Part shown: positions 4,311 through 28,052 of the stretch, piece by piece | Position numbering within the stretch: position 1 is the first letter of the stretch | Layout of the letters: each line of letters begins with the position of its first letter | Assembly: GCA_965208325.1 (NCBI GenBank) | Contig: OZ242326.1 | Span: 1,920,001 to 1,984,000, forward strand | Reading direction: 5' to 3' | Length of the DNA stretch: 64,000 nucleotides | Source of the DNA: Candidatus Poribacteria bacterium | Lineage (GTDB): Bacteria > Poribacteria > WGA-4E > PCPOR2b | The notes under the pieces: generated by a model | What the model saw: only the letters and a program-made list of their open reading frames with translations | The model's database searches: none | What the model was told of the DNA's origin: nothing | Program-made: the position numbers and the translations under genes

Positions 4311-4399
4311 CTTCTAGAGGCCGCCGCTTATGCGATTCACTGAGCGGTTAACCAATGCGATAGAGATTAGGAGGTGTATAGAATCGTGATGAACCACCT

Positions 4400-4537: not shown

Positions 4538-4648
4538 CATTGACCCACGCGATTTTTCGGACTTACGGATTACACCTTAATCCCTCCAAAATTCCCACCC
4601 CGATAATCTTCCCGAATACTGCCTTTATAACATGTGATATAGTTCAAC

Positions 4649-4678
4649 TTGACATGCACACGATGCGCATGGTATAAT
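4649..4678 (+). promoter_or_regulatory. Consensus sigma70 promoter for the defence operon
   Basis: TTGACA (4649-4654), 18-nt spacer, TGn-TATAAT (4673-4678), 37 nt before ATG 4716. Confidence 0.7.
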
Positions 4679-4715
4679 TGGATTTTATCAATGCCATATA
4701 CTCATCGGGAAAATC

Positions 4716-7700
4716 ATGTCAGCCATTTTACCAACAGACTATCCGCAGAAAATTAAAGACCTGCGCGGCACGAAGGGTTTAACGCAGACGCATTTTGCGG
4801 AGCTCGTCGGCGTCTCCTTCGCCACCGTTAACCGTTGGGAAAATGCGCAATCTCGCCCAAACAATTTGGCGTGGAAACGCATCGTTGAGTTGGCGGCGTC
4901 GAGCGACGCGGAGCAAGCGGCACAACCCGTACCCGACGACTCGCCAAGCATGGATTTTGCCGCCGACCCGAACGCGGTCTCGGCGGTTGCAGAGGCGCAC
5001 CGCTTGGCATACGGCCACCTATTTAACCCGGCGTTCGCCACGGAAACCTCGCTAATCGACCCGCTTCCGCACCAGCGCATCGCGGTTTACGAAAAGATGC
5101 TGGGGCAGAAGCCGTTACGTTTCTTGCTGGCGGACGACGCCGGCGCCGGCAAGACCATCATGACGGGTTTGTACGTCCGCGAGATGCTGTCCCGCCGGCT
5201 CATCCGCCGCGTGCTCATCGTACCGCCTGCCGGTCTCGTGGGAAACTGGGTGCAGGAGATGCGCAAGCTGTTTCGGTTGTCGTTCCGCATCATCAGGGGC
5301 GATGACGCGCGAGACGGCAACCCTTTCAGCGGCGCCGAGAGCGATCAGGTCATCGTCAGCGTGGACACCTTGGTAACGCAGCGGGTTTTTGACCGCCTTA
5401 GAGACCCTCGAACGGAGCCCTACGACCTTGCGGTCTTCGACGAGGCGCACAAGCTGTCTGCGAATCGGCTGCCGGATTTCCGGGTGCGCAAGACGAATCG
5501 GTACAGGCTGGCGGAGGCTATCGCCGGGGTTGAAGTGGACAGCGACGACTGGAAATTTCCGCAACCCGCCCAGCACCTGCTGCTGCTGACCGCGACACCG
5601 CACATGGGCAAGGACTTTCCCTACTATTACTTGTGGCGCCTGCTGCTGCCGGAAGCGCTCTCGACCTATGACGCCTTCGATAGATTTCCCCGCGAACTTC
5701 GAGAGCGGCATTTCATCCGCCGCACCAAGGAGGAGATGCTGCATTACAACGAGAAACCGTTGTATCCGCAGCGTAACTGCGACACGTTGAGCTACAATCT
5801 CTCGCACGGTCCTGAAGGCGAGCAGGAGCTCTACGACGAGACGACAGAATACATCCGCGACTACTACAACCGCGCGAAAGTCTTGAACCGTTCAGCCGCA
5901 CAATTGGCGATGAGCGTCTTCCAACGGCGTCTCGCCAGTTCCACCTATGCACTCATGCGATCATTCGAGCGCCGGAGAGAGAAGTTGGAAGGGATGATTG
6001 ACGACATCATGAGCGGACGGCTCACTGAGGAACAGTTCGCCAGCCAGCAACAGCGTCTCAATGTCCCTAACGACGTATTCGATACATCAACCGCTGATGA
6101 GACCGAGGACGACCAGAACGAAGCACACGAAAATCAAGCGCTCGGCGGCACCACGGCTTTTAACCTAACCGAGTTAGCGGCGGAGAGGGGTGAGGTCGAG
6201 GCGTTGTTGAATAAGTCACGGAAATTGTTGGACGCGGGCGAGGAATCCAAATTTGAGAAACTGCGAGAAGTTCTGCGTCATCCGAACTACATCAACGAGA
6301 AATTCATCATCTTCACCGAACACCGCGACACGGCTGAGTTTCTGGTGCGCCGGTTGGAAGGTCTTGGATTCACAGATCAGGTTGCGCTTATCCACGGCGG
6401 ACTAGACTACCGCGAACGCGAGGGGCAGGTGGAGTTTTTCCGCCGTTCTGCGGAGAAAGGCGGGGCGAACTATCTCGTAGCGACAGACGCCGCGGGTGAG
6501 GGGATTAACCTCCAGTTCTGCTGGTTGATGGTGAACTACGATATCCCATGGAATCCAGCGCGGCTTGAGCAGCGCATGGGGCGAATCCATCGTTACGGCC
6601 AAAAGCACGACCCCGTGGTGATAGTTAATCTGGTTGCGGGCGGCACACGCGAGGGGCGTGTATTGAAAACGCTGCTCGATAAACTTCAGGTTATCCGAGA
6701 GCAGCTTCAATCCGACAAAGTGTTCGATGTGGTTGGGCGTCTATTTGAGGGTGTATCCATGACCGAATATCTTCGGCAGGCGCTTACCGACGATGTTGAG
6801 GACGTCACCGAGCGGTTGGAGGGCAACCTAACGGAAGACCAAGTTCGAGCACTAGCGCGAAAAGAGCAGGTTCTGTACGGCGGCGGCGGCGACGTGCGCC
6901 GCAGACTGCCGCAACTCAACGCGGAGACGGAGCAGGAAATCTATCGTCAACTGCTGCCGGGTTATGTGCGCCGTTTTGTGGAGCGCGCCGCGCCGCTGCT
7001 CGATTTGCGCATTGACGGCGACCCTGACACCGCCTTCAGCTTGATACCGAACCGACCGCGTGCGTCTGATCCCTTGCTCACCTCGCTTGAGCGGTATTCC
7101 GAGGGTGCGCGCCAGCTACTAACGGTGTACAAACCGACGAGCCGGGAAGATGCCGTCTGGATGCACCCCGGCGAGCCCGTGTTCGATTGCCTTTCAGATG
7201 CCATCCTAGAGCGGTTTGGACGCGCCGGACGACAGGGCGCCGTGTACACCGATCCCTATGCCGCCGAGGCGTATCTGTTCCACATTGCGCTGGTTTCTGT
7301 TGAACAGCGCGGCAGAGAAGACGAGATGACCGACCTGTTTGATGACCGTTCTGAGCGTGAAAACGCGCCTAAGCCGCTAGAATCACGATTGGTCGGGCTA
7401 CGCCAATCCAGCGACGGTAGCGTCACTGAACTTCCAGTCGAACACCTACTGCTGCTCAGGGGTGCGGGGGGCTTCGCGCCGAGTCGTGTGCCGCTCGCAA
7501 CCTTGGCACGCAGTATGGCTCCAGACGCCCTGGAGTTTGCCCGGGCGGAGATAGGCGAGCGACTGGCGCAGCGCCATCGACAGGGACGATTCGACGACCT
7601 TCCCTCACGTGCGGAGTCGGTCAACCGCGGCTTCGATTTTCAGGCAGCTGAACTTGCGGCTGCCCGATCCCGCCTCAACCAACTTGCACGCGAAGGAGAT

Positions 7701-8315
7701 CGGGACGCGGAGAAGGAACTTGGGGCGGTCAAGGATCGACAGCGCGGCTTAACCGCCTCCCGAAATCGGCGCCTGGCTGAACTGCGAGCCGAACCGGAAC
7801 TGATTCAGGCCGGGGATGCCGCGATCTTGGTGCATGCACTCGTGGTGCCCGTTCAGGACACGGAGGCGGTTGAGCGTTACGACGACGATGTCGAAGCCGT
7901 CGCCGTGGAGGTTGCAACCGCTTACGAGGAGCACCAAGGCGCGGTAGTCACGGATGTCTCGAAGCCTGAACTCGCGCGGCGTGCCGGTTTGATGGATTGG
8001 CCCGGCTTCGATCTCAAGTCCCGCCGTCCAGCAAATGCCGACGGTTCTGTTGAGGAGCGTGCCATTGAGGTTAAGGGGCGCGCCGGATCCGGGGATGTTC
8101 AGATGTCCGAAAATGAATGGGCGCGGGCTTGCAACCTGCGTGAAGATTATTGGCTTTACGTTGTCTTCGACTGCGCGACGCCGCGGCCGCGCTTGGTGCG
8201 AGTTCAGGACCCGTTCGCCAAATTGCTCGTCCGCAGCCGCGAATCTTTGGCGTTCACAATAACCGAGGGGGCACTCAATGAGGCGTCGGCGCCTGTTGAG
8301 GAAACAAGGAGATGA
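4716..8315 (+). CDS. XRE-HTH / SNF2-family (SF2) helicase / C-terminal DUF3883-type PD-(D/E)XK nuclease fusion
   Basis: N-terminal IKDLRGTKGLTQTHFAELVGVSFATVNRWE; LADDAGAGKT, DEAH, LTATPH, NYDIPWNPARLEQRMGRIHRYGQ; C-terminal GFDLKS...AIEVKGR...SENEW...YWLYVV. Confidence 0.9.
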   Translation: MSAILPTDYPQKIKDLRGTKGLTQTHFAELVGVSFATVNRWENAQSRPNNLAWKRIVELAASSDAEQAAQPVPDDSPSMDFAADPNAVSAVAEAHRLAYGHLFNPAFATETSLIDPLPHQRIAVYEKMLGQKPLRFLLADDAGAGKTIMTGLYVREMLSRRLIRRVLIVPPAGLVGNWVQEMRKLFRLSFRIIRGDDARDGNPFSGAESDQVIVSVDTLVTQRVFDRLRDPRTEPYDLAVFDEAHKLSANRLPDFRVRKTNRYRLAEAIAGVEVDSDDWKFPQPAQHLLLLTATPHMGKDFPYYYLWRLLLPEALSTYDAFDRFPRELRERHFIRRTKEEMLHYNEKPLYPQRNCDTLSYNLSHGPEGEQELYDETTEYIRDYYNRAKVLNRSAAQLAMSVFQRRLASSTYALMRSFERRREKLEGMIDDIMSGRLTEEQFASQQQRLNVPNDVFDTSTADETEDDQNEAHENQALGGTTAFNLTELAAERGEVEALLNKSRKLLDAGEESKFEKLREVLRHPNYINEKFIIFTEHRDTAEFLVRRLEGLGFTDQVALIHGGLDYREREGQVEFFRRSAEKGGANYLVATDAAGEGINLQFCWLMVNYDIPWNPARLEQRMGRIHRYGQKHDPVVIVNLVAGGTREGRVLKTLLDKLQVIREQLQSDKVFDVVGRLFEGVSMTEYLRQALTDDVEDVTERLEGNLTEDQVRALARKEQVLYGGGGDVRRRLPQLNAETEQEIYRQLLPGYVRRFVERAAPLLDLRIDGDPDTAFSLIPNRPRASDPLLTSLERYSEGARQLLTVYKPTSREDAVWMHPGEPVFDCLSDAILERFGRAGRQGAVYTDPYAAEAYLFHIALVSVEQRGREDEMTDLFDDRSERENAPKPLESRLVGLRQSSDGSVTELPVEHLLLLRGAGGFAPSRVPLATLARSMAPDALEFARAEIGERLAQRHRQGRFDDLPSRAESVNRGFDFQAAELAAARSRLNQLAREGDRDAEKELGAVKDRQRGLTASRNRRLAELRAEPELIQAGDAAILVHALVVPVQDTEAVERYDDDVEAVAVEVATAYEEHQGAVVTDVSKPELARRAGLMDWPGFDLKSRRPANADGSVEERAIEVKGRAGSGDVQMSENEWARACNLREDYWLYVVFDCATPRPRLVRVQDPFAKLLVRSRESLAFTITEGALNEASAPVEETRR

Positions 8316-8426
8316 GGGGTTTTGAAGGCTTAAAAACTTCAACCCAAACCAGATCGGTTTCGATTGACGAACGATGGTGGGGTGGGGTATAGTGAACAAA
8401 AGCAAACCACTTAGGAGGAGAACACG

Positions 8427-8966
8427 ATGGATGCACTGATTGAAGGATTTAAGGTATTCGCTCCTATTGTATTGGCAATCGTTACAGTAATCGCTTTTGT
8501 GTGGAAAGTGCCAAGCAAGAAAGACATGCAAAGGGGGGACGACGCTCTCCGAGCGATGCTGAACAATCTTTCTGATAGAATTGACGCAAATTCTCGGACA
8601 ACACATGTGGAGATTACTAAACTCAATGACAAGATGGACGCAAATTCTCGGACAACACATGTGGAAATCACGAAACTCAATGAGAAGGTTGACGCAAATT
8701 CTCGGACAACGCATGCGGAGATCGCCACACTCAATGACAAGATGGACGCCAACTTCCGCACGGTCTATGACAAGATGGACGCCAACTTTCAGACAGTCTA
8801 TGCTGATATCCGTACACTGAACGGCAAGATAGAATCTTATTCTCAGGCAACCCATGAGAGGATTGACAAGGCGACGGCGGAACTCCGCGCAGACATCAAG
8901 ACGATGAATCAGAACTACATCGATCACCTAGCTCGACACGAGGAGCAGGCACTGAAAGCACGCTAA
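8427..8966 (+). CDS. Membrane-anchored coiled-coil protein with internal tandem repeats
   Basis: aggagg RBS; N-terminal hydrophobic helix; repeats of DANSRTTHVEITKLNDKM. Confidence 0.7.
   Translation: MDALIEGFKVFAPIVLAIVTVIAFVWKVPSKKDMQRGDDALRAMLNNLSDRIDANSRTTHVEITKLNDKMDANSRTTHVEITKLNEKVDANSRTTHAEIATLNDKMDANFRTVYDKMDANFQTVYADIRTLNGKIESYSQATHERIDKATAELRADIKTMNQNYIDHLARHEEQALKAR
8583..8802 (+). repeat. In-frame tandem repeat: 3 x 54 bp plus two shorter (about 33 bp) variants
   Basis: gacgcaaattctcggacaac at 8583, 8637 and 8691; gacgccaactt at 8745 and 8778. Confidence 0.9.
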
Positions 8967-8989
8967 ACTCATGGCGATTGAGTTGTGAT

Positions 8990-9305
8990 GGAGACCGAAA
9001 ATGGGGATGGTTAACGCAAGCGCGACCGACAGCCTCGTCCCGCGACTGCACGTGGAAGCCATCAATCTCAAACCCGAAGCGAAACGGACGTACCTTTTGG
9101 CAGATGTTACGGAAAATCAGATTGATATTGCAGTTGCACGAATTGAATTTATGGGTGAAATTGTATGGGCACCGCGCTATGTGGAGAGGAAAACATCAAG
9201 CCGCTGCACGGCGTCACAGCGCTAGAGTCATTGGGTATCGAAATCGATCCGTTCAACCAACAACTGAAGAACCTGCCGGCGGTGCGGCTGAAGGACATCG
9301 GATGA
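8990..9305 (+). pseudogene. Decayed clan AA (retropepsin-like) aspartyl protease gene
   Basis: Frame 1 VNASATDSLVPRLHVEAINLKPEAKRTYLLAD...IEFMGEIV, frameshift near 9166, then GTALCGEENIKPLHGVTALESLGIEIDPFNQQLKNLPAVRLKDIG* ending 9305. Catalytic DTG is replaced by NAS. Confidence 0.7.
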
Positions 9306-9437
9306 TTCTGGCAGTAGCAACACGCTCTAATCGTGTGAAACTAACGGTTGAAAAATTCGGAGATTATTCCATTCGCGCGAGACCAAAGACTATATTTCAA
9401 ATTACCACGCCGGTGCGTGGGAAGGGACAACGGGACA

Positions 9438-10919
9438 ATGTTTGAGTATTATGACGGCTACCTTGGACGTCGCAATTCCATTCCAGTCAATCCGGACGAC
9501 CTTATACGGTTACGGCTGCAAGGACTGCGGTGGTTGCAAGTTGCCAAGCAGGTACCGCGCACTGATGGTGGAATCGGCATCTCCCATAACATCTTATCTC
9601 AGGCCAACCGCGTTCGGGAATCACACGAGTGGCGTATTGCACTTGATGACTACTGGCGACGGCACCATGGAAATGCACCACCACCGTTTGATGTGAAAAA
9701 ATTATTGAGTTATCCTTCAGCACCAAACGCAGAGACGTTTCAATTACCAGAACCTAATCCAGACTCAGAAACACAGACGAATTCTTCCAACGGAGGCTTT
9801 CAATCAGGCAAAGACGTTGAGGAAGATCTGGATAGCGGTGTAGAAGTCGAACGCGACGATCCAAAGCTAAAGATTGTGCGACCATTTAATCCAGAGAAAA
9901 TAAGAGTTCTGACTACCAATACAACCGTGGAACTGCTTGTTTCGCGGATTCGGCATGATGAGGTCGATTTGGAGCCTGAATTTCAGCGCTCATTCATATG
10001 GACAACTGAGCAACAAAGTCGATTGATAGAATCCCTGCTCCTGCGTATTCCAATCCCGGTGTTTTATGTGGCTGCGGATGATAAGGAAAACTGGTCTGTG
10101 GTTGACGGTGTCCAGCGAATGTTTACTATTTACAACTACGTTACAGACAAATTTTCCTTAGACAGACTCGAATATCTGGACCGAATTAATGGCAAAAGGT
10201 ATAGCGAACTTCCGCGACCGATGCAGCGCAGAATTGGCGAAACCGAACTTGTTGTGAACATCATTCAGCCAGGAACCCCCGAGGATGTGATGTTCAACAT
10301 TTTTCACCGGATTAACACCGGAGGCATGACGCTGAACGGACAGGAAATTCGGAACGCGTTACACCCCGGTCCGGTGCGAGACTATCTGAAACGGCTTGCT
10401 CAATCCGAGGAATTCCGCAAAGCAACGGACTATTCAATAAAAGAAATCAGAATGGCTGACCGAGAGTGCGTTTTGCGCTTTATAGCCTTCTATGTTGATT
10501 CGTGGCAGAAATATGGCGACAATGACCTCAACGGTTTTCTTAGTCGCACAATGACTAAAATCAACAATATGGATTCACGATACCATGAAATGCTCGCCGA
10601 AGAATTCAAGAAAGCAATGAACGCCGCTTATCGCATTTTTGGCAGGGAAGCGTTTCGCAAGCGATACGACCGAGAGGATACCCGCCGCCGACCGGTCAGT
10701 AAAGCGCTGTTTGATGCGTGGAGCGTCGAACTTGCGCGCCGTTCGCCTCAAGAAATTGATAAACTCGTGGACAAACGCGAGCAACTCATAGATTGCTTTA
10801 TAGAACTGATGAATTCAGACAGTGACTTTGACAGGGCAATCTCCTATTCAACCGGCACACCTCAGCGAGTGAAAAAACGATTCCACGCGATAGCACAATT
10901 GATTACGGAGGAGATTTGA
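9438..10919 (+). CDS. DUF262 (ParB-like) protein; Menshen NsnA-like
   Basis: PEFQRSFIW..QQSRLIESLLLRIPIP, VVDGVQRM, IFHRINTGG..LNGQEIRN; first of a DUF262 / DUF3696-ATPase / third-gene triad. Confidence 0.85.
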   Translation: MFEYYDGYLGRRNSIPVNPDDLIRLRLQGLRWLQVAKQVPRTDGGIGISHNILSQANRVRESHEWRIALDDYWRRHHGNAPPPFDVKKLLSYPSAPNAETFQLPEPNPDSETQTNSSNGGFQSGKDVEEDLDSGVEVERDDPKLKIVRPFNPEKIRVLTTNTTVELLVSRIRHDEVDLEPEFQRSFIWTTEQQSRLIESLLLRIPIPVFYVAADDKENWSVVDGVQRMFTIYNYVTDKFSLDRLEYLDRINGKRYSELPRPMQRRIGETELVVNIIQPGTPEDVMFNIFHRINTGGMTLNGQEIRNALHPGPVRDYLKRLAQSEEFRKATDYSIKEIRMADRECVLRFIAFYVDSWQKYGDNDLNGFLSRTMTKINNMDSRYHEMLAEEFKKAMNAAYRIFGREAFRKRYDREDTRRRPVSKALFDAWSVELARRSPQEIDKLVDKREQLIDCFIELMNSDSDFDRAISYSTGTPQRVKKRFHAIAQLITEEI

Positions 10920-12055
10920 TGATAAGGAAAATCAAACTGTCGAATTTTAAGTGCTTTCGAAATCTGGATCTGGACTGCGCTCCGCTTACACTATTATGCG
11001 GTTTGAACGGCATGGGAAAAAGTACTGTTATCCAAGCGCTGCTCGTCCTTCGACAGTCGATAGAATCAGGGGACTTACTTGACGGCAGACTAGCGCTCGG
11101 CGGCGCACGCGCCGATCTCGGCACTGGACCAGACGTACTTTTTGAGGGGGCTGACATTAATAATGTTGGATTTGAAATCGAGTCTGACGGAATCAATATT
11201 CCTTGGAAACTATCGTTTCGGTATTCAAGGACGAGCAATCAATTGGCTGTTGAAAGCAGTGATTTGAATCTCTCTTCTCCCTTCGTGCCTACGGATTGGC
11301 AGCAAATCCCCCCATTCGGACATAATCTCCTGTACATTGATGCAGAACGCGTCGGTCCGAGAAAATTCCATCCACTCTCAGAAGCTGTGGCGCGTCGAGT
11401 CGACTTTGGATCAGGATGTCAATACGCCTTAAACTACCTAAGTCTAAACCGAAATATGAAGTTGCTTGAAGGCGATCCGCGTTGCGTCAACTTGCCGGAG
11501 CATCGCGAACACAGTCTAATGGCTGTCGTCAATCACTGGTTGCAAGGAGTTACCCCTGGTGTTCGCGTTAATCTTGATACTGTCCCCACCGCGGATGCCC
11601 TTATCGCCGAATACTCTTTCGATCGTCCGGGAGACGTACCTACTAAGCGTTTTCGGGCGACAAACGTCGGATTTGGTTTGTCGTATACGCTTCCGGTAAT
11701 ACTTGCGCTGCTATCTGAACCGGGCACATTGTGTTTGATAGAAAATCCAGAAGCGCACCTTCACCCGCGCGGGCAGACGAAGTTGGCGGAACTCGCGGTG
11801 CGCGCATCGTTAGCTGACGTGCAGGTGATTGTGGAAACTCACAGTGACCACTTCATGGATGGGGTGCGTATCGCTGTGCGGGACGGGTTAATCTCTCCCG
11901 ATAAAGCGGCCATCCATTACTTTGAACGCCCCGAAGGCGAGACGGTTGTGACTTCACCGCAAATTGATGAGGACGGACGGCTGTCAACATGGCCTGCCGG
12001 CTTCTTTGACCAACACGAAGAAAACTTGGAGAAACTGCTTGCCCCCAAAAACTAA
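10916..12055 (+). CDS. ABC/OLD-type ATPase with C-terminal DUF3696; Menshen NsnB-like
   Basis: GLNGMGKS, NVGFGLSYTLP, LIENPEAHLHP, VETHSDH, C-terminal GRLSTWPAGFFDQ. Confidence 0.85.
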   Translation: MMIRKIKLSNFKCFRNLDLDCAPLTLLCGLNGMGKSTVIQALLVLRQSIESGDLLDGRLALGGARADLGTGPDVLFEGADINNVGFEIESDGINIPWKLSFRYSRTSNQLAVESSDLNLSSPFVPTDWQQIPPFGHNLLYIDAERVGPRKFHPLSEAVARRVDFGSGCQYALNYLSLNRNMKLLEGDPRCVNLPEHREHSLMAVVNHWLQGVTPGVRVNLDTVPTADALIAEYSFDRPGDVPTKRFRATNVGFGLSYTLPVILALLSEPGTLCLIENPEAHLHPRGQTKLAELAVRASLADVQVIVETHSDHFMDGVRIAVRDGLISPDKAAIHYFERPEGETVVTSPQIDEDGRLSTWPAGFFDQHEENLEKLLAPKN

Positions 12056-12056
12056 T

Positions 12057-12974
12057 ATGCGAGAGATGGTACTGAATCACGCGAGCCTTACAGCGCCCGA
12101 TTACGACACCGCGCTTTGCTGGCTGAAGGACGTCGCTATCGGGATGATTCAGCTCCGGAGCATCGCTGATCCAAGTCTGAGGATGATTCATGCTGTGCAT
12201 GAAATCGTGATACTTCCCAAGCTTTCGCTTTTCGATGCATTCAAATCATTAAGGAGTATCGGCGCACGGGAGGAGTCGGCGTTTCTCATGCGTCAAAGTT
12301 CAAAATACCCGCTTCTGAGCGACGTCGAGTCGAATGTAAGGGCTCGCTTCTTAGCGTGTGAAGGCAGACAACTTCCAGCGGAAGACTGTGAACCGCTCAT
12401 CTTATGTGCAATTGCGAATTGGATTGCCGTCGGTTTTCCGTCAGACTCTAGGTGGGATAGTGACCAACTCACAGTCAGGTTCAACGAGTTGCTTGCTGAC
12501 GAGAGAATTGAAGAAGCAGGCGAGAGGATAGATAACCTCGCTAGATCAACTCACTCCAACTCAATACGCGAGCGTCATCGTGCGGCATTCCTTGAGCATC
12601 AAACCCCTTCGGCAGTATGGGAACAAAGGGACGAGGTGTTTCCAAATCTAGTTTTTGGTCGAGATGTTAAACCACCGCCACAATTTCTCGGAAGCGCTAT
12701 GAGAAGGCTCGCCGAGCTTGACAATTCGGCGGCCGAATGGCGGGTTGTTGGAGGGACCGCACCTTGCTGGGCATGCAAAGTCACTCCCGAAAGCCAGAGC
12801 GTTAGAAACAACCCGGCGTTATTAAACGCGCGCCGATTTAGGTCAAGACACGGGACACGGGAATTGTATGAATTGCACGCCCGGATAGGTAGTGGATTCC
12901 GTATTCACCTTCGTTTCGACGCCAAAACACGAGAAGTCGAGATTGGATATATGGGGCCTCATTTGCCACTATGA
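12057..12974 (+). CDS. Putative Menshen NsnC-like effector (possible C-terminal RelE/colicin D-like RNase)
   Basis: ATG at 12057, 1 nt after the ATPase stop; C-terminal TPES...RRF...ELHARIG..FRIHLRFD...EIGYMGPHL; third-gene position. Confidence 0.6.
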   Translation: MREMVLNHASLTAPDYDTALCWLKDVAIGMIQLRSIADPSLRMIHAVHEIVILPKLSLFDAFKSLRSIGAREESAFLMRQSSKYPLLSDVESNVRARFLACEGRQLPAEDCEPLILCAIANWIAVGFPSDSRWDSDQLTVRFNELLADERIEEAGERIDNLARSTHSNSIRERHRAAFLEHQTPSAVWEQRDEVFPNLVFGRDVKPPPQFLGSAMRRLAELDNSAAEWRVVGGTAPCWACKVTPESQSVRNNPALLNARRFRSRHGTRELYELHARIGSGFRIHLRFDAKTREVEIGYMGPHLPL

Positions 12975-12981
12975 ATACCTT

Positions 12982-13035
12982 GAGGTCGATACACTCAATC
13001 AGCAACTGAAGAAGTTGCCATTCGTAAGGTTGAAG
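12982..13035 (+). pseudogene. Second remnant of the aspartyl-protease 3' end
   Basis: EVDTLNQQLKKLPFVRLK vs EIDPFNQQLKNLPAVRLK at 9240-9293 (13/18 identical). Confidence 0.6.
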
Positions 13036-13110
13036 AAACTGCGGACGAGACGGGAAAAGAAAAAGACAAATTAATGCGATATAACTAGAGTTCGATAAAA
13101 GGGAACTTTA

Positions 13111-15970: not shown

Positions 15971-16001
15971 AAAACTTTACAATGCTTGTGTGACTAAATT
16001 C

Positions 16002-19178: not shown

Positions 19179-19267
19179 GCGACAAAACGAGTTTCGAACA
19201 TTTGGGGTTCCATTACCTGTCGCCCCAATGCTCCTATCGGGCTTCAAAGCAACACATGCAGATTACG

Positions 19268-19291
19268 GCACACGGAGTGTGCCTACTACTA
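19268..19291 (+). repeat. REP-like palindrome family G (ggcacacggagtgtgcctactac)
   Basis: Palindrome ggcacac-gga-gtgtgcc followed by tac; also at about 50777 and 51121. Confidence 0.65.
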
Positions 19292-19337
19292 TGGTTCAAC
19301 TGCGTAAGTGCTATCTAAATCGAATGCGGTCTTTAAC

Positions 19338-20624
19338 ATGGCGAAGATTGAAGGATTCAGAGTAAAAAATTTTATGGTGCTCAAGGATGTTACCCTCGGG
19401 CGGGTCTGGAGCAAGCGGGATCGTAAACCCCTCACCGTTATGACGGCGGTTATCGGGAAAAACGGGGTGGGCAAAAGCGCGCTGATTGATGCATTTGGGT
19501 TTCTTGCCGACGCCCTTAAATCGGGAGTTGAGGATGCTTGCCACCAACGGGGGCGCGGCGGCTTTCAGACGTTGAGGTCGCAAGGGCAAACTGGTCCCAT
19601 TGAGTTTGAGGTTTATTACAGAGAAAGCAGCAAAACTCAGCCCATAACCTACGAGATCGCCATTGGCGAAGACCATTCCGGACGCCCATACGTCTGGGAA
19701 GAACGCCTCAGACAGGGACCAAAAGGCCGTAGATCATTTCATTTTTTGTATCTCAAGTATGGCAGAGGGATGGCATTGAAGGGCACACAAACAGGCCGCC
19801 AAATTGACGAAAAAATTGAACAAATTGATCTTGCAAGTTGCGCGAATTCAATTACGGCAGATGAATCTAGTGAGACTGAAACGGTCGAATTGAGAGACGG
19901 GCGTCAACTCGGCATTACGTCGCTCGGTGCCCTGAAGCAGCATCCGAGAATTTCCGATTTTCGCCAATTTATTGAGGGATGGTATCTCAGCTACTTCAGG
20001 CCGGACGCAGCACGCAGCCTGCCACTCGCTGGGCCGCAACCACATCTCAATACGCGCGGAGACAACCTCGGCAATGTCGTGCAATTTATGGAACGCGAAC
20101 ATCCGCGGCGTTTCAAGAAACTCTTGAACGGCATCGCAGAGAAGATACCCGGCATAGACCGGATTGACACGGTAAAAACCACTGACGGAAGGCTCCTACT
20201 CCGATTCAACGACAAGGGATTTACCGATCCCTTTTACGCCCAGCAGGTGTCCGACGGTACGCTCAAGGTCTTCGCTTACCTGCTGCTGCTGGCGGATCCG
20301 AAACCGCCCCCGTTTCTGTGTATCGAAGAACCCGAAAACGGATTATACCACAAACTATTGGAGACCTTGGCGAACGAATTCCGAGACCACACCAGTCGGG
20401 GCAACAATAGGTCGCAGGTCTTTGTCACTACCCATCAACCGTACTTCGTTGATGCGCTCGATCCAGCGGAGGTCTGGATTCTAGAGAAGGGTGCGGACGG
20501 CTTTTCGACAATTCGACGGGCAAGCGACGATCCAATCGTAAGCAACATGGTCGCCGAGGGATTGCCGTTGGGGGGCCTCTGGTACAGCAACTATCTGGAC
20601 GCGAGGCAATTCGATGCACTTTGA
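19338..20624 (+). CDS. ABC-type AAA_21-like ATPase
   Basis: GKNGVGKS, VSDGTL signature, IEEPENGL, TTHQPY, GLPLGGLWY terminus. Confidence 0.87.
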   Translation: MAKIEGFRVKNFMVLKDVTLGRVWSKRDRKPLTVMTAVIGKNGVGKSALIDAFGFLADALKSGVEDACHQRGRGGFQTLRSQGQTGPIEFEVYYRESSKTQPITYEIAIGEDHSGRPYVWEERLRQGPKGRRSFHFLYLKYGRGMALKGTQTGRQIDEKIEQIDLASCANSITADESSETETVELRDGRQLGITSLGALKQHPRISDFRQFIEGWYLSYFRPDAARSLPLAGPQPHLNTRGDNLGNVVQFMEREHPRRFKKLLNGIAEKIPGIDRIDTVKTTDGRLLLRFNDKGFTDPFYAQQVSDGTLKVFAYLLLLADPKPPPFLCIEEPENGLYHKLLETLANEFRDHTSRGNNRSQVFVTTHQPYFVDALDPAEVWILEKGADGFSTIRRASDDPIVSNMVAEGLPLGGLWYSNYLDARQFDAL

Positions 20625-21261
20625 GATTCTCGTCGAAGACCTGTCCGGAAAAAGGGCGCTTGATATTTTGATGCCGAAAATTCTCGACGAGCAGCATACA
20701 TTCAATGTAAAAAATTACCGAGGAATTGGACGTATTCCAAAAAACCTCACCGGTAATACCGTTGGCAAACGATTATTACTTCATCAACTTCCAAAGCTAC
20801 TCCGGGGGTATGGAAAAACCTTTGCTGGATACCACTCCAGCTATCCCGCAGCAGTGATTCTGGTTTGCGATTTGGATGACAAGTGTTTGAAGACATTTCG
20901 TCAGGAACTAATTGAAGTTTTGAATGCGTGCCACCCGAAACCGGAGACTCGGTTCTGCATTGCTATCGAAGAGGGTGAAGCTTGGCTGCTCGGAGATATA
21001 CCTGCAATCAAGACAGCCTACCCAAAAGCGAAGGACAATGTGTTGAATGATTACGAAAACGACTCGATTTGCGGAACTTGGGAACTTCTGGCAGACGCCG
21101 TATTTATCACTGGATCGCGTGCACTCAAAAAGCAAGCAGGGCAGGCGTTGGGCATGCAGAAATCGGCTTGGGCAGAGAACATCGCACCGCACATGGATGT
21201 AGATGCCAACGCATCCGCAAGTTTCCGGTATTTTCGGGATAAGATACGAGACCTAATCTGA
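20614..21261 (+). CDS. DUF4276-like TOPRIM-fold partner protein
   Basis: EILVED start, LVCDLDD DxD motif, AIEEGEAWLLGD, N.S.SF.YF terminus; overlaps the ATPase stop. Confidence 0.72.
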   Translation: MHFEILVEDLSGKRALDILMPKILDEQHTFNVKNYRGIGRIPKNLTGNTVGKRLLLHQLPKLLRGYGKTFAGYHSSYPAAVILVCDLDDKCLKTFRQELIEVLNACHPKPETRFCIAIEEGEAWLLGDIPAIKTAYPKAKDNVLNDYENDSICGTWELLADAVFITGSRALKKQAGQALGMQKSAWAENIAPHMDVDANASASFRYFRDKIRDLI

Positions 21262-21334
21262 AACCGATCGTGATTTTGGTGAATTCGCCTTTTCTTAAAA
21301 GAAAAATCCTTCACCAAATGAGGATGACACGAAA

Positions 21335-24300
21335 ATGAAATCGACACCGAAACCGTGGCACGAAGTTGTTCAATTGCGCGATGATGTTAGGACCCGTGAA
21401 CTATCGCTGGCGGTGTTTGCCGCTGACCTTTACGACGTGGTGATGCAAAAGGGTAAACGCCCGGCTTACGAGAATCCTGACGAGTTTTTTGCCCTCACCT
21501 ATCCCACGTACAACCTGCGCGAACTGGTCAAGGACGTTGCCCTGCGGTTGGCGCGGCGGAGCGACAAGGCGTATCGGACACTCTCAGTCAACTACGGCGG
21601 CGGCAAGACGCACACGCTCATCACGCTCAAGCATCTGGTGGAAGACCCTACTGCATTGCCGGAGCTTCCCGCAATCGATGAGTTTGAAGCGCACATCGGA
21701 CAGAAGCCGCCATCGACTCGGTGCGCTGCGTTGTGTTTCGACAAGATTGATCTGGAAAAAGGCGTCCAAACGCTCGGTCCCGACGGTTCAGTCGCCCAAC
21801 TCAAACGTCCGTGGAGCGTGCTCGCTTATCAGATTGCTGGTTCGGACGGTCTACGACTGCTTCACGCCGATGGCAAAGATATTGAGCGAGATACGCCGCC
21901 CGCAGAACCCGTTTTATCGGAATTGCTGTCAAAGCCGCAGAGAGACAATCTCTCGACTTTAGTGCTCTTGGACGAGGTGCTGATGTACCTGCGCGATATG
22001 GTTGAAACCGACGGGAGTTGGCGCGGCCGACTGCTCAGTTTCTTCCAACACCTGACGAGTTCGGTGGTAAAGGTTGACCGTTGCGCCATGGTGGCTTCGC
22101 TGCGCGCTTCTGATCATAACAAGCACGATGACCTCGGAAAAGAGCTCCTCGCCGAGGTGTCAGATGTCTTTGGTAGACAGATGGAAGAGACTTCCAGTCC
22201 CATTAGCAAAGAGGACGTAGCGGAAGTGCTCCGTCGGCGTTTCTTCAAACCCGAGTCCATACAAGACAAGGACGCATTTCGACCTCAAGTGACCGCTGTC
22301 GTCCGCAGCATCTCCGCGCTTGATGAAGAGACGAAGAAGGCGCAGAAGGCAGAGGAGGAACGATATTTGAACAGTTATCCGTTCCATCCGGACCTCACCG
22401 AAACCTTCTACAGCCGCTGGACGCAGCTTGAAAGATTTCAACGTACCCGAGGTATCTTGCGCACCTTCGCTACGGCATTGCGAGACGCCGAAAAGTGGGA
22501 CACCGGACCGTTAATTGGGCCAAATGTTTTTCTGGCGGAGCCGGGAAAGACCGGTTTAACTGAAGCCGCGAGCGAACTCACCTCCTTTGCCAGCGTGGAT
22601 GCGACGTCGGGCCAACACCAAGAATGGGGGCCTATTCTTGAGGGCGAGTTAAAAAAAGCGGCTACCATCCAGTCTGAAACCACCGGTTTAACCGGAAGAG
22701 AGATAGAGCAGGCGGTCGTAACGGTGTTCTTGAGTTCCCAGCCAGCCGCCCACAAAGCGTTGACGCCGGAGCTGATGGTATTGATTGGCACTGCCAACCC
22801 GGACAAAATTGGGTTGGAAAAAGCGCTGCGCCGCTGGACTGAATTGTCTTGGTTTTTGGACGAACAGGAGATTGCCACCGGAGAATCCGATGCCGGCGGC
22901 GCCACAGCATTGCCTAAGGCTTGGCGGCTGGGCAATCGGCCCAACCTGCGACAGATGCATCACGCGGCATGTACGACTCGTGTTCCCCCAAGTCTTATTG
23001 ATTCAAAGATTATCGAGGCGATTGAGAAACAGAAAGAACTGGTTTCAGGCGCCTCCGCTGCTGGCGCCAAGGTGCACAAGCTACCTGAGCAACCCCGCCA
23101 TATCGCAGATGACGGCGATTTCCACTATGCGATTCTTCGTCCGAGTGCGGTCTCGGAATCCGGCAAACCGAGCGCCGAAGCCAAGCGGTTCATTAATGAA
23201 ACGACTGCGTCCGACCGACCGCGTGTGAATCGCAATGCGGTCGTGTTGGCGGTGCCCTCTAGGGATGGACTTGAAATGGCGCGGGAGCGCGTCCGCCAGT
23301 ACCTCGGTTGGGAGGAGGTTCGCGATCAACTCAAAGACCAACAGATTGATGCTATCCGCGACCAGATGCTCGTAACCGAGATGGACAAGGCACGCAGACG
23401 CATTCCAGATGCTATCAAGCAGGCGTACTCCATCGTGGTAACGGTCAACGAGAGCAATGAGATTCACGCTTTCAAAGTGGTTGTGACCGACCAACCGCTG
23501 TTTACGACCATCAAGGCGGACAAGCGAGCGCGAATCCAAGAGACAGCTATCAGCGCTGAAGCCATGATGCCGGGCGGGCCTTACGACCTGTGGCGCGACG
23601 ACGAGCAGTCGCGCCGCGTCAAGGACTTGGTCGGCGCTTTCGCACAATTCCCGAAACTGCCCAAGATGCTGCGGTCTAAGGGAATTATGGACACTGTTGT
23701 GGGCGGCGTTCAGCAGGGCATCTGGGCGGCGCGATACGCGCGTCCGGATAAGACGACGAAGACCTTTTGGCGCACGGCAATTGATGAACACGCGCTTGAT
23801 GAGTCGGGCCTTGAAGTGCTGCTGCCGGAATCGGCAACGTTGAGCGAACTGCCGTCCAATCTGCTCAAGCACCAAGAGCTGCCGGGGTTATGGCAGTCCG
23901 ACGAGATTACGGTTCAAAGCCTGTACGACTACTTCGCAGGGGGTTATGTCGTGAACATCCCCAAGGACGGTTATGAAGAGCCGCTCACCATCCCCAAATG
24001 CGATCCTGCGGTCGTTGATGCCGCAGTATCGGAAGCCGTCGAACTGGGGACGGTCTGGTTGACCAGCGGACCGGCTTCAATTCTTAATGAACCCGTGCCT
24101 GCAGGAGTGCTTAACGCCGAGGCGACCCTACGACCGCCGCCTGCCCCGATTCCTGTGAATGAGTTGATGGAGGAGGCAACCCCCCAGGCGTGGGAGGATG
24201 GCAAAACTACGGCGCTCGCCCTAGTTACTGCGCTCTCGCAAAAACGGAGTGCGACGCTGCCGTGGCAGACGGTGCGTTCGGCGATAGATGACGCTATTCG

Positions 24301-24637
24301 TGCGAAATGGCTGGCACTACGTAACGACAGCGCGTACTGGCCGTGCGACTTGACGGGGGCTCAACACGTGGTGCTTCAAGTCCCACAGACTCGGGATCCC
24401 GTTCCGCCGATTCCCCCAAAACCCGCGGGCCTCCTTGTAGCTACAGCGGATTTAGAAGCCCACGGCATTCAAGACTTAGCGGATCAGATTCCGGATATTA
24501 CAGACGCGGCGATCGGGGAGGATTTAAAATTTAACATCCGCGTTGAGCTTGGGGGTGAAACACCGCCAGATCCGGAGGCGGTGGAAAAAATCAACAGGCT
24601 GCTCGCCGAGGTGTCTGAGGACATGAAACTGGAGTGA
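21335..24637 (+). CDS. DUF499 family AAA+ ATPase (BrxC/PglY-related)
   Basis: KPWHEVV..R.DV...FAADL..V, FFALTYPT, Walker A NYGGGKTH, Walker B LLDE, LRRRFF, YPFHP, FQRTRGILR. Confidence 0.87.
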   Translation: MKSTPKPWHEVVQLRDDVRTRELSLAVFAADLYDVVMQKGKRPAYENPDEFFALTYPTYNLRELVKDVALRLARRSDKAYRTLSVNYGGGKTHTLITLKHLVEDPTALPELPAIDEFEAHIGQKPPSTRCAALCFDKIDLEKGVQTLGPDGSVAQLKRPWSVLAYQIAGSDGLRLLHADGKDIERDTPPAEPVLSELLSKPQRDNLSTLVLLDEVLMYLRDMVETDGSWRGRLLSFFQHLTSSVVKVDRCAMVASLRASDHNKHDDLGKELLAEVSDVFGRQMEETSSPISKEDVAEVLRRRFFKPESIQDKDAFRPQVTAVVRSISALDEETKKAQKAEEERYLNSYPFHPDLTETFYSRWTQLERFQRTRGILRTFATALRDAEKWDTGPLIGPNVFLAEPGKTGLTEAASELTSFASVDATSGQHQEWGPILEGELKKAATIQSETTGLTGREIEQAVVTVFLSSQPAAHKALTPELMVLIGTANPDKIGLEKALRRWTELSWFLDEQEIATGESDAGGATALPKAWRLGNRPNLRQMHHAACTTRVPPSLIDSKIIEAIEKQKELVSGASAAGAKVHKLPEQPRHIADDGDFHYAILRPSAVSESGKPSAEAKRFINETTASDRPRVNRNAVVLAVPSRDGLEMARERVRQYLGWEEVRDQLKDQQIDAIRDQMLVTEMDKARRRIPDAIKQAYSIVVTVNESNEIHAFKVVVTDQPLFTTIKADKRARIQETAISAEAMMPGGPYDLWRDDEQSRRVKDLVGAFAQFPKLPKMLRSKGIMDTVVGGVQQGIWAARYARPDKTTKTFWRTAIDEHALDESGLEVLLPESATLSELPSNLLKHQELPGLWQSDEITVQSLYDYFAGGYVVNIPKDGYEEPLTIPKCDPAVVDAAVSEAVELGTVWLTSGPASILNEPVPAGVLNAEATLRPPPAPIPVNELMEEATPQAWEDGKTTALALVTALSQKRSATLPWQTVRSAIDDAIRAKWLALRNDSAYWPCDLTGAQHVVLQVPQTRDPVPPIPPKPAGLLVATADLEAHGIQDLADQIPDITDAAIGEDLKFNIRVELGGETPPDPEAVEKINRLLAEVSEDMKLE

Positions 24638-24638
24638 T

Positions 24639-27600
24639 ATGCACACGTATGATGGTGGGATTCGGCTTAGTGCTTCTGATTTAGTTAATCATCTGAGTTG
24701 CCGGCATCTGACGCAGTTGAATACGGCGGTGGCGTTGGGGGAAATGGTTGCGCCGTCACGCCACGATTCACTCTTGGAGTTGCTGCAGCAGCGGGGTGCA
24801 GACCACGAGGAGAATTATATCCGGCACCTGAAGGACCGTGGGTTGGAAATCGTGCGCATTGGCGGCGAATCCGTTCAGGACATGAACGTAAAACAGACGG
24901 AGGCAGCCATGCGCCGCGGGGCCGATGTCATCGTTCAGGGTGCGCTCGCGCACGGACGGTGGTGCGGACGCGCCGATATCCTGCGGCGCGTGGATGCGCC
25001 CAGCCGGCTCGGTAGATGGTCTTACGAGGTCTACGACACCAAGCTCTCCCGCGAGACTAAAGGCGCAACCATTCTGCAGTTATCCCTGTATACCGATCTG
25101 GTTGAGCAGATTCAGGGCGAACTCCCGGCGCAGATGTACGTGGTCGTCCCATGGACGGAATTTCAGGAAGAGCCGTACCGTACCGACGACTACGCAGCCT
25201 ACTACCGGTTGGTTCGGCACAGCCTAGAGCAGGCGTTGGACCAAGAGATACCTGCCGATACCTACCCGGATCCAAAATCTCATTGCGATATCTGCCGCTG
25301 GCAGCGCCCATGCGAACAGCGCCGGCGTAATGACGATCATCTCTGTTTGGTGGCGGGAATTTCGAACTCGCAGATTCGAGAACTTCAGTCACGCGACGTT
25401 AGCAAGACCGCAACTCTGGCGGCAGAGCCGCTACCGCTGGCTTGGCAACCGAAACGCGGCGCTAAGTGGAGTTACGAACGGGTACGAGAGCAGGCGCGCG
25501 TGCAGGTAGCGGGGCGGACTCAGAATCGACTAATCTCTGAAACGCTTGAATTAGCGCCGGACCGCGGCCTTTCCATGCTACCCGATCCGTCGCCGGGAGA
25601 CATGTTCTTCGATTTCGAGGGCGACCCGTTCGTCGGTGACGGCGGACTGGATTATCTGATTGGCCATATTGTCACCGACGCCGACGAGGTTCACCGACAC
25701 TCCGCACTTTGGGCGTTCACCCGTGCGGACGAGAAAGACAGTTTTGAGCGCTTCGTCGACATCGTGGTGGCGCGCTGGGCGGAGTATTCCGACATGCACA
25801 TCTACCACTTCGGCGGCTACGCGCCGGGGGCGATGAAGCGGTTGATGGGGCGTTATGCCACCCGCGAGGACGAGGTTGACCGGATGCTGCGTGCAGATCT
25901 TTTTGTCGATCTCTACCGCGTAATGCGCGAGGGGATTCGTGCCAGCGTGGAGAGTTATTCGCTCAGAAATATGGAGGCGTTCTACGGCTTCCAGCGCAGC
26001 GTGCCGACTAGGGAAGCACACCTGTCCAACTTCAGCATCCAGTCGGCTTTGGCGTTAGGCGATGCACCTAGTATCAGCGATTTTGACAAGGCAACCGTGG
26101 CGCGCGCTAACCGGGACCGCTGCGTCTCCGCATCACGGTTGCGCGATTGGCTTGAACAGGAACGGGAAAAACTCATCGAATCGGGCGAGGAGATTGAAAG
26201 ACCTGAAGCGGGAGACGGCGAGGCGTCGGCGAAGATTAGCGAACGCCAAGAACGGGCCGCGTCGTTATCTAAAGCCATTGCGAGGGATGTCCCAGTGGAT
26301 TCGGAGGAACGGACTGCAGAAGAGCAGGCGAGGTGGGTGCTGGCTAACCTGTTGGACTGGCACCGACGGGAGGAGAAGGCGACGTGGTGGGAGTTCTTCA
26401 GGTTGGCGGAATTGTCTGCAGAAGACTTGAGCGAGGAGCGGTCGGCACTCTCCGGCCTAGCGTTCATAGAATCGGTAGGCGGCACAACCGCAGCGCCGGT
26501 GCACCGCTACCGGTTCGAACCTCAAGAGACCGAACTGGAGGGCGGCGAGTCGCTGTATAGCTATGGCGCCAAAAGGTTTGGGACTTTAGTAAGAATTAAT
26601 CCTCAGACACGCACCGCTGACATCAAGAAACGGCGAGATACTGCGCTGTTTCACCCGACTGCTGTTTACGCTCACGACCGGGTACCGACCGAAGTGCTGG
26701 CAGACGCCCTCTTGCGCATCGGCGAACACGTTGCCGAGAACGGCATTACCGTCGGCGGCGACGATAACACTGCCAAGGATCTCTTGCTGCGGCAGCCGCC
26801 TCGCCTGGAAGGAAATCCTATCCGCCGGGCAGGAGAAACCGCTTTGCAGGCGGCTACCCGTATCGCGCCCTTGCTAGACGCGGGCGTGCTGCCGATCCAA
26901 GGGCCGCCGGGCGCGGGCAAGACTTACACCGGCGCGCGGATGATTGTTGAGCTTATCAAATCCGGCAAACAGGTCGGCATCACCGCCAACAGCCACAAGG
27001 TTATACGAAATCTTTTGGACGAGGTGATGCGCGCGGCTCAAGGACAGGACATCCCGGTCGAGGCGATCCAGAAGTGTTCTGAGGAGGACTTTGAGGCAAG
27101 TGCGTACGGCATTGCGCGGGCAACGAGCAATGCCGGCTTGTTCTCTGCGCTAGCTTTTGGGACAGAGGTTGCCGGCGGCTCAGCTTGGTTATGGAGCCGT
27201 CCGGAGGCTGCGGGCGTATTAGACGTGCTATTTATCGACGAGGCGGCACAGATGTCTCTTGCTAACGTGCTAGCGGTATCGCATGCCGCGGACAGCCTAG
27301 TTCTGTTGGGCGATCCGCAGCAGTTGGACCAACCGACTAAGGGTACGCACCCCGACGGCACCGGCGTATCGGCGCTGGCACATTTGTTGGGCGGCCGACA
27401 GACGATTGCGGAGCATCAGGGGTTGTTCCTGGAGGAGACCTGGCGGTTGCATCCTGCAATTTGTGAATTCACGTCCGACGCCTTTTACCAAGGTAGGCTG
27501 CAATCACGGCAAGGTATGGAAATTCAACAGGTCAACTCTAGCAGTCCCGTATCGGGCACGGGGCTGCGCTTGATGCCGGTGCAACACGAAGGGAATCGAA

Positions 27601-28052
27601 ATTCGTCGGTTGAAGAGGCGGAGCGAGTCGCCGAGCTGTTCCGGCGGTTGACTGACGGTACGTCCGTGTGGACAAACGACAAGGGTGAAACGCTGCCGGT
27701 GGCGACGCATGACGTGCTGATAATCACGCCCTACAACGCGCAGGTGTCGGAGTTGATGAATCGGCTGCCGGATGCCAGGATTGGGACAGTTGACAAGTTC
27801 CAGGGGCAAGAAGCCCCGGTGGTGATTTACTCGATGGCGACATCGTCGCCGGAGGATGCGCCGCGGGGAATGGAATTTCTGTATAGCCTCAACCGGCTCA
27901 ACGTCGCCACTTCGCGGGCACGCTGCGTCTGCGTATTGGCGGCATCTCCGAAACTGTTCGAACCGGAGTGCCACACGCCGCGCCAAATGAAGCTCGCCAA
28001 CGCATTCTGCCGCTACCGGGAGTTGGCTACAGAGATAACGGCGTTGGATTAA
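24639..28052 (+). CDS. TM0106-family RecB/Cas4-like nuclease + RNase H-like domain + SF1 (Upf1/Dna2-like) helicase
   Basis: LSASDL..HLSCRH, GRADIL..YEVYDTK..LQL.LY, HCDICRW...C; FFDFEG; QGPPGAGKT, IDEAAQ, GDPQQL, ITPYNAQ, TVDKFQGQEA, NRLNVATSRAR. Confidence 0.88.
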   Translation: MHTYDGGIRLSASDLVNHLSCRHLTQLNTAVALGEMVAPSRHDSLLELLQQRGADHEENYIRHLKDRGLEIVRIGGESVQDMNVKQTEAAMRRGADVIVQGALAHGRWCGRADILRRVDAPSRLGRWSYEVYDTKLSRETKGATILQLSLYTDLVEQIQGELPAQMYVVVPWTEFQEEPYRTDDYAAYYRLVRHSLEQALDQEIPADTYPDPKSHCDICRWQRPCEQRRRNDDHLCLVAGISNSQIRELQSRDVSKTATLAAEPLPLAWQPKRGAKWSYERVREQARVQVAGRTQNRLISETLELAPDRGLSMLPDPSPGDMFFDFEGDPFVGDGGLDYLIGHIVTDADEVHRHSALWAFTRADEKDSFERFVDIVVARWAEYSDMHIYHFGGYAPGAMKRLMGRYATREDEVDRMLRADLFVDLYRVMREGIRASVESYSLRNMEAFYGFQRSVPTREAHLSNFSIQSALALGDAPSISDFDKATVARANRDRCVSASRLRDWLEQEREKLIESGEEIERPEAGDGEASAKISERQERAASLSKAIARDVPVDSEERTAEEQARWVLANLLDWHRREEKATWWEFFRLAELSAEDLSEERSALSGLAFIESVGGTTAAPVHRYRFEPQETELEGGESLYSYGAKRFGTLVRINPQTRTADIKKRRDTALFHPTAVYAHDRVPTEVLADALLRIGEHVAENGITVGGDDNTAKDLLLRQPPRLEGNPIRRAGETALQAATRIAPLLDAGVLPIQGPPGAGKTYTGARMIVELIKSGKQVGITANSHKVIRNLLDEVMRAAQGQDIPVEAIQKCSEEDFEASAYGIARATSNAGLFSALAFGTEVAGGSAWLWSRPEAAGVLDVLFIDEAAQMSLANVLAVSHAADSLVLLGDPQQLDQPTKGTHPDGTGVSALAHLLGGRQTIAEHQGLFLEETWRLHPAICEFTSDAFYQGRLQSRQGMEIQQVNSSSPVSGTGLRLMPVQHEGNRNSSVEEAERVAELFRRLTDGTSVWTNDKGETLPVATHDVLIITPYNAQVSELMNRLPDARIGTVDKFQGQEAPVVIYSMATSSPEDAPRGMEFLYSLNRLNVATSRARCVCVLAASPKLFEPECHTPRQMKLANAFCRYRELATEITALD

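Follow-up and report, generated by a model that had tools for sequence, protein, structure and literature searches.

The subject of this report is a 64,000-nucleotide (nt) stretch of contig OZ242326.1 from a Candidatus Poribacteria bacterium (the window, in whose numbering all positions are given), and in it a defence locus built on the genes hmaA, hmaB and hmaC. Very probably this locus is an intact Hma system that has taken up autonomous defence cassettes between its genes, where they are swapped by recombination. The architecture and its reading have already been published (Payne 2024, bioRxiv 10.1101/2024.01.29.577857; Liu 2024, PMC11232893; a 2026 survey in Nucleic Acids Research, PMC12839542), and no new kind of system is described here; particular to this locus are two systems stacked in one gap, Menshen and SPARTA (short prokaryotic Argonaute, TIR-APAZ) as passengers, and replacement scars across relatives.

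The + strand from 2336 to 30697 is an unbroken row of genes, nearly all of them named by profile searches; all features given below lie on this strand. hmaA (4716-8315) encodes an XRE-type helix-turn-helix (HTH; HTH_3), SNF2 and Helicase_C domains, and a C-terminal PD-(D/E)XK domain (NOV_C, residues 1059-1156); residues 78-1152 match the PADLOC profile (E 4e-166), and the motifs GAGKT, DEAH, and a C-terminal D..EVK are present. hmaB (15990-19178) encodes a DUF1156 N6-adenine methylase with a nested hypervariable target-recognition region (PADLOC E 4e-116; DUF1156 at residues 15-72); motif I (FAGGG at residue 138) and motif IV (DPPY at residue 637) are present, with a large insert between them. 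hmaC (21335-24637) encodes a DUF499 AAA+ ATPase (PADLOC HmaC E 1e-74; Pfam DUF499) with GGGKT at residue 88. HmaA, HmaB, and HmaC are the names used for the system in PADLOC (Payne et al. 2021).

In the sequence-only reading that preceded this analysis, these genes had been placed on the + strand as SNF2-DUF3883, DUF1156, and DUF499 genes and taken as a BREX (bacteriophage exclusion)-related, restriction-modification (RM)-like module. Genes and families are confirmed by the profile searches, and the module corresponds to Hma or Type-1 BREX-related (BR) system (PMC12839542). The backbone is accordingly named here as a predicted intact Hma system, alias the Type-1 DUF499-centred BREX-related system. 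Its three families, their order, and their domains are those of that survey, including the nested target-recognition domain and a DUF499 ATPase without HEPN; HmaA here begins with the XRE-type HTH, whereas an N-terminal TUDOR domain is given in the survey. The locus does not belong to BREX proper: neither PglZ nor BrxC was matched by any of the 18 + strand proteins of 2336-30697; the likeness to BrxH is at the level of the helicase only. The subtype with a phospholipase D (PLD)-helicase, DUF1156, and DUF499 (Type-2 BR; NCBIfam NF042962-NF042964) was considered and rejected, as scores lay far under the equivalog cut-offs (160.8 vs 1000, 81.3 vs 1200, and 147.3 vs 1100 bits); no PLD (HKD) nuclease domain was found among the Pfam matches.

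Two complete defence systems lie between hmaA and hmaB. Menshen (9438-12974) is formed by nsnA (9438-10919; GmrSD_N domain; PADLOC NsnA E 8e-145), nsnB (10916-12055; ABC ATPase; PADLOC NsnB E 3e-104), and nsnC (12057-12974; PADLOC NsnC E 5e-51), adjacent open reading frames (ORFs) that overlap or abut. The start of NsnA is most likely ATG 9438; an N-terminal extension of about 125 residues is also kept in the Menshen copies of relatives G002 and G057a. SPARTA is formed by a TIR-APAZ gene (13111-14457; 448 aa; PADLOC E 2e-72) and a gene for a short prokaryotic Argonaute (pAgo) of the MID-PIWI-only kind (14474-15970; 498 aa; PADLOC pAgo_I E 1e-171). Both proteins match solved chains (8fex_A/B, 8j7s_A/B) over their full length (E 1e-99 and 1.5e-20), and Glu83 of TIR-APAZ is aligned to Glu77 of 8j7s_B, which we take to be the catalytic TIR glutamate. 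The adjacent pair and its aligned glutamate resemble the SPARTA structures (8fex, 8j7s, 8ifk, 8qlo), but the similarity of TIR-APAZ is modest (E 1.5e-20) and the system is embedded in Hma rather than free-standing. Between hmaB and hmaC lies HEC-01, formed by HEC-01A (19308-20624; ABC ATPase, Pfam AAA_21; PADLOC E 3e-184) and HEC-01B (20614-21261; DUF4276, TOPRIM-like; PADLOC E 2e-92). The earlier placement of Menshen, SPARTA, and an ATPase-TOPRIM cassette between the backbone genes is upheld by these matches, the last being HEC-01. The tight junctions noted earlier were likewise recovered: the pAgo stop at 15970 is followed after 19 nt by GTG 15990 and after 31 nt by ATG 16002.

The ratio of non-synonymous to synonymous substitution (dN/dS) was calculated pairwise for window genes against three orthologues, over synonymous distances (dS) of up to 1.4. 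Values were 0.12-0.15 for hmaA, 0.12-0.14 for hmaC, and 0.10-0.20 for all three backbone genes as well as for NsnB and HEC-01A. These ratios point to purifying selection on backbone and cargo, neither of which looks decayed. GC content is 0.56-0.59 in the backbone, 0.47-0.52 in the cargo, and 0.52 in the window, which fits with an exchange of cargo.

HmaB was searched in 61 related genomes, and 40 kb around each close orthologue was compared (G002, congener; g11, sister genus; G033, another family). Close orthologues (72-84% identity) were found at 11 places; at ten of these hmaA, hmaB, and hmaC stand in the same order on the same strand, and at the eleventh hmaB is an orphan (G057:C5:703223-706366, L017/L018; 73-74% identity), neither hmaA nor hmaC being present within 40 kb of it. 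The HmaB of the window is closer to that of G033 (84%) than to that of the congener G002 (77-78%). As a separate observation, the 4.0-Mb genome G056 has 21 separate DUF1156 methylase matches around its chromosome, most at 33-35% identity.

Gap sizes are 2.9-9.0 kb between hmaA and hmaB and 0.5-4.2 kb between hmaB and hmaC. Cargo was named by comparing 52 ORFs with PADLOC and 36 with Pfam, picked from 189 ORFs. In the hmaA-hmaB gap, Menshen is accompanied by PDC-M71 in G002 and by two unknown genes in G057a. G055 carries a zeta-toxin-like gene as well as CBASS (a cyclase with a 2TM effector), G036 carries Avs2, and G051 has two unknown genes besides a long pAgo of class II. A TIR-PDC-S60 fusion occurs in both G045 and G048, the latter with an NsnA fragment in addition; G039 has a GHKL ATPase and an endonuclease that resembles PDC-S60; and G033 and G042 have genes of the PARIS/Gabija type (UvrD/GajB-like, OLD/GajA-like, and AriAB-like). 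The hmaB-hmaC gap holds HEC-01 in four of 11 loci (window, G057a, G036, G048), ParE-type pairs in three (G039, G055, G051), IS200-type transposases in three (G039, G002, G036), and DDE and rve transposases in G055; it is nearly empty in G033, G042, and G045. The cargo consists mostly of known defence families. The earlier proposal that the inter-gene positions are cargo hotspots is supported by this tabulation of DUF1156/DUF499 loci, in which backbone order is kept at ten of 11 places and contents vary; identical gene content was not found in the relatives, the full cargo set differing between every pair of loci.

Exchange of cassettes can be followed in the comparison with G002. The flanks, a PD-T4-4-like gene pair upstream of hmaA, and hmaA itself up to 8398 are about 90% identical at the DNA level, and sharp breakpoints follow at 8398/8399, 13017/13018, 15907/15908, 19222/19223, and 21304/21305. 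Segment 8399-9319 (a coiled-coil gene and a protease remnant) is missing from G002; the Menshen segment 9320-13017 is 80% identical only; in place of the SPARTA segment 13018-15907, G002 has PDC-M71; hmaB is 82-85% identical outside an unalignable middle; the HEC-01 segment 19223-21304 gives way to small ORFs and an IS200-type gene; identity is back to 92% from 21305 on. The middle of hmaB (17513-18173, residues about 508-728), presumed to be the target-recognition region, cannot be aligned as DNA with either G002 or G057a, while both ends align with both at 74-85%. Between window and G002, hmaA (dS 0.21) and hmaC (0.29) have diverged far less at synonymous sites than hmaB (0.82) and nsnB (0.76), so that the history of the central segment differs from that of the ends and goes back further. 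Such a pattern is what recombination within conserved backbone genes would produce.

Remnants of replaced cargo were found as well. About 70 nt upstream of hmaB in G002, downstream of PDC-M71B (L007), a 23-residue C-terminal remnant of a short pAgo lies behind a stop, the scar of an earlier SPARTA-like occupant. Other scars are a 3'-end fragment of a protease gene after Menshen in the window (12979-13041; tblastn E 1e-4, with alignment to protease 3' ends) and the NsnA fragment in G048. Four g11 loci have in common a conserved stretch shortly before hmaB; it lies inside a 383-aa ORF in G051 and G057a, and no such ORF is called in G042 and G048. The pattern in these comparisons is that sequence right in front of hmaB stays and content further upstream is swapped.

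The left edge of the HEC-01 cassette is marked by a palindrome like repetitive extragenic palindromes (REP-like), GGCACACGGAGTGTGCC(TAC), at 19267-19283. In the genome, 39 copies of GGCACACGGAGTGTGCC occur at no more than one mismatch (32 forward, 7 reverse), compared with none in a reversed control; further copies in the window lie at 50777 and 51121. In G057a the GGCACACGGAGTGTGCC hairpin is found at the right edge of HEC-01, in opposite orientation (locus position 25186), and in G036 two IS200-type genes flank HEC-01. A spike of more than 2000-fold in metagenome depth over 18673-19339 was traced to the dispersed GGCACACGGAGTGTGCC palindrome. Four metagenome contig runs cover the locus by short contigs only, none of which spans it; contig joints at the locus have sides of fewer than 31 letters, and none was counted as a cassette-free form. 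The 0.82 share of run X4 was not assigned to any variant.

Under the reading preferred here, HmaB would methylate host DNA, HmaC would scan or recognise DNA, and the helicase-nuclease HmaA would nick or cut unmodified invader DNA. Menshen, SPARTA, and HEC-01 have colonised the two hma gaps, each presumably working alone as its characterised relatives do; SPARTA would sense DNA by guide RNA and then deplete NAD+ through its TIR domain. Cassettes would be gained and lost by recombination, with the conserved backbone genes as homology arms, and replaced cassettes leave 3'-end scars; co-orientation behind the hmaA promoter would allow at least partial read-through expression. A methylation-based first line with abortive back-ups is plausible at this locus, and the same idea, of a methylation first line with embedded back-ups, is found in the Discussion of Payne 2024.

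Two further parts of the hmaA-hmaB gap had been put forward in the sequence-only reading as unnamed cargo and candidate new defence systems, and neither bears this out. ORF 8978-9445 is an artefact that overlies a frameshifted pseudogene of a clan-AA (retropepsin-like) aspartic protease (8989-9305; TIGR03698 E 5e-5), whose halves lie in two frames and match the intact copies of relatives by tblastn at 8989-9165 and 9168-9302. The other is a coiled-coil gene (8427-8966) encoding a membrane-anchored protein of 179 aa with 54-nt tandem repeats, for which weak coiled-coil matches only were obtained; a ZorA-like match (E 1e-5) is confined to the coiled-coil tail and was treated as compositional. 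Orthologues stand after hmaA in G033 and G042. Each g11 genome has two to six matches to the family, most of them scattered, and it was found nowhere else within the window's own genus. At ten sampled loci of dispersed paralogues, no match was found to the window island proteins used as queries, and a mobile two-gene module of coiled-coil and protease genes was rejected, the protease adjoining none of the ten. In G033, G036, G042, G045, G051, and G057a, the first gene after hmaA is one for a clan-AA protease, either intact or broken; the coiled-coil gene and a second protease copy then follow in G033, G042, the window (frameshifted), and G057a (fused). The coiled-coil and protease genes show no sign of being a defence system, and are better seen as a junction block that recurs in this Hma clade.

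Upstream of hmaA, in the same island, lies the PD-T4-4-like pair (2336-4310), an ABC ATPase of 476 aa (PADLOC PD-T4-4_A E 1e-106) and a 186-aa partner that matches PDC-M47B only (E 1e-7); the pair stands upstream of Hma in G002 and downstream in G057a and G039:C41. Downstream of hmaC follow a TM0106 nuclease-helicase gene (24639-28052), which encodes a PD-(D/E)XK, RNase-H-like nuclease fused to an SF1 (IGHMBP2/Upf1-like) helicase (TIGR03491 239.8 bits vs a cut-off of 97.45), and glyoxalase, ankyrin, and radical-SAM genes (28164-30697). The site is bounded by a small conserved gene (1128-1505) and by the glyoxalase-ankyrin-radical-SAM genes, and matching sites were found in G001, G003, G039:C41, and G057a. 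G001 has the fused TM0106 gene alone; G003, the stand-alone nuclease; G039:C41, the fused gene and the PD-T4-4-like pair. Compared with G001, the window carries about 23 kb (PD-T4-4 and Hma block) upstream of the resident gene, and across two families the site holds anything from a single gene (a TM0106 form) to some 26 kb of defence genes. The chromosomal site is itself a hotspot, because TM0106 forms sit there without Hma and contents vary. Farther along the window, short GC-rich palindromes (GCGCGGCAAGATGCCGCGCCTACAAG) are repeated in dense arrays over 35750-60600, often at a spacing of 40 nt, together with several longer tandem or dispersed repeat families, including four 489-nt units at 58761-60525.

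The TM0106 gene had been counted in the sequence-only reading among the genes of the operon's system, and it could be a fourth part of Hma, serving as an additional effector whose translation is coupled to that of hmaC; this we regard as very unlikely. The 1-nt junction between the hmaC stop at 24637 and ATG 24639, noted before, was confirmed, and of ten TIGR03491 matches obtained in the 61 relatives, seven adjoin an Hma locus, but these seven cases amount to about two events, and three of the ten orthologous Hma loci have neither TM0106 form. A stand-alone nuclease of 491-511 aa, scoring over the TIGR03491 cut-off, lies about 200 nt upstream of hmaA in five g11 loci (G039, G042, G045, G051, G055), and the conserved hmaA promoter is absent in exactly those five, where nuclease gene and hmaA may share a transcript. 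Against a role in Hma, orthologues in G001 (79% identity) and G039:C41 (63%) stand at this chromosomal site with no Hma present, as does the stand-alone form in G003. In a wider scan of the best 80 TM0106 loci, from many phyla, 79 carry the full fusion (about 1,130 aa), and outside L026, the congener, clear Hma-like pairs neighbour two of 79 (L059, L098), with two weak or partial cases (L063, L077); among 112 immediate neighbours of 58 loci, with 17 near-duplicate or anomalous loci left out, no PADLOC family was matched by more than four. TM0106 and TIGR03491 are not mentioned in the 12 top-ranked of 3,033 papers found. We conclude that the nuclease-helicase is an independent resident of the chromosomal site and not an Hma gene; a defence role is possible and unsupported.

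Transcription bears on another alternative, an integrated super-operon in which about 15 genes are read as one transcript from the hmaA promoter and the abortive cassettes (SPARTA, Menshen, HEC-01) guard Hma, firing when it is inhibited, in the way that PrrC is tied to EcoprrI. The promoter is of sigma-70 type (4649-4678; TTGACA-18-TATAAT, with TG before the -10), the sole 12/12 match among 14 promoter-like sites in 2000-21900; its -35, GCACACGATG spacer core, and -10 are kept in six of 11 loci from two families (window, G002, G033, G036, G048, G057a). Just upstream of the -35 lies an imperfect palindrome (inverted repeat I1, 4623-4642), and wherever the promoter is kept the motif TATAACAT..GATATA is seen again; this palindrome is a candidate operator for the HTH of HmaA, and autoregulation of hmaA is suggested by the palindrome taken together with the HTH at the start of HmaA. 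The conserved promoter, the co-directional genes with their short junctions, the lack of any terminator-like site in the + strand intergenic gaps, and the preservation of the region just upstream of hmaB through cassette replacement would suit a single transcript, and the guard idea is one of those discussed in Payne 2024. The super-operon is nevertheless judged unlikely. A second promoter-like site (8364-8393; 10/12) lies ahead of the first cargo gene, the coiled-coil gene, in the block common with G033, and four cargo units have 111-136 nt of intergenic sequence ahead of them; to the one consensus promoter claimed earlier, which is indeed perfect and conserved, this second promoter-like site has to be added. 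The same cassettes are freely replaced in relatives, and the HEC candidates, HEC-01 among them, were chosen in Payne 2024 by occurrence in more than 100 genomes, on the view that independent systems should also turn up away from hma, like Septu. A related proposal makes Hma in this clade a cassette platform as well as a restriction-like system: the hmaA promoter, possibly autoregulated, would drive the row, Hma would perhaps hold the co-expressed abortive cassettes in check, a phage that disables Hma would fire them, exchange would proceed by homologous recombination in the backbone, and protease remnants, the REP-like hairpin, and IS200 elements would mark the swap points. As a whole this strikes us as quite improbable. 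That the backbone is a decaying relic and genomic sink, with Hma broken by insertions and only the cargo functional, might be read from the large insertions between the three hma genes, the transposases (IS200-type, DDE, rve) in the hmaB-hmaC gap of four relatives, and some HmaA loci reported to lack hmaB and hmaC (Liu 2024), but three full-length ORFs with catalytic motifs, the low dN/dS over the whole range of dS, and the order kept at ten of 11 places make it highly improbable.

Several points weigh against the preferred reading of an intact Hma with autonomous, exchangeable cassettes. PADLOC names are used here for hidden Markov model matches and are not PADLOC system calls; the related loci are kin, so that ten loci are not ten independent events; two complete multi-gene systems occupy one gap here (six genes and a pseudogene), compared with a limit of three genes per gap in the published survey; HEC-01 was not protective when tested in Payne 2024; and over-expression of Halomonas HmaB left T4 infectivity unchanged (Liu 2024), because of which the RM-like logic of Hma itself is unproven. 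In the same work, the HmaA nickase was required against T4 and an insertion hotspot was described in Halomonas hma. Embedded genes are reported in 931 of 1,485 Hma systems in Payne 2024, where the term HEC (Hma-embedded candidate) was coined and HEC-01 is the pair found here. The same-orientation defence cassettes between hma genes described in Payne 2024 and Liu 2024 resemble those of the window, and an AAA_21 ATPase pair lies in the hmaB-hmaC gap in Halomonas (Liu 2024), as HEC-01 does here. In the main text of Payne 2024, figures and supplements aside, SPARTA and pAgo are not mentioned and Menshen appears as an ABC-ATPase relative only; in the main texts of the literature searched, neither SPARTA nor Menshen was found as an Hma passenger. 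Auxiliary and back-up nucleases within BREX-related loci are described in the 2026 survey (PMC12839542). A back-up effector is likewise nested in a modification-based system in the cases of PrrC in EcoprrI and BrxU in BREX (via Payne 2024); functional coupling has been shown for both, whereas here it is conjecture.

The locus is a well-resolved natural example of the published Hma embedding rule, with one hotspot, eleven related loci, and distinct cargo sets. In the sharp breakpoints, dS jumps, and remnants, the swapping of embedded defence systems can be read directly from the sequence, and the three cassette positions are possible test beds for whether nested abortive systems guard, or are regulated by, the methylation-based system around them.

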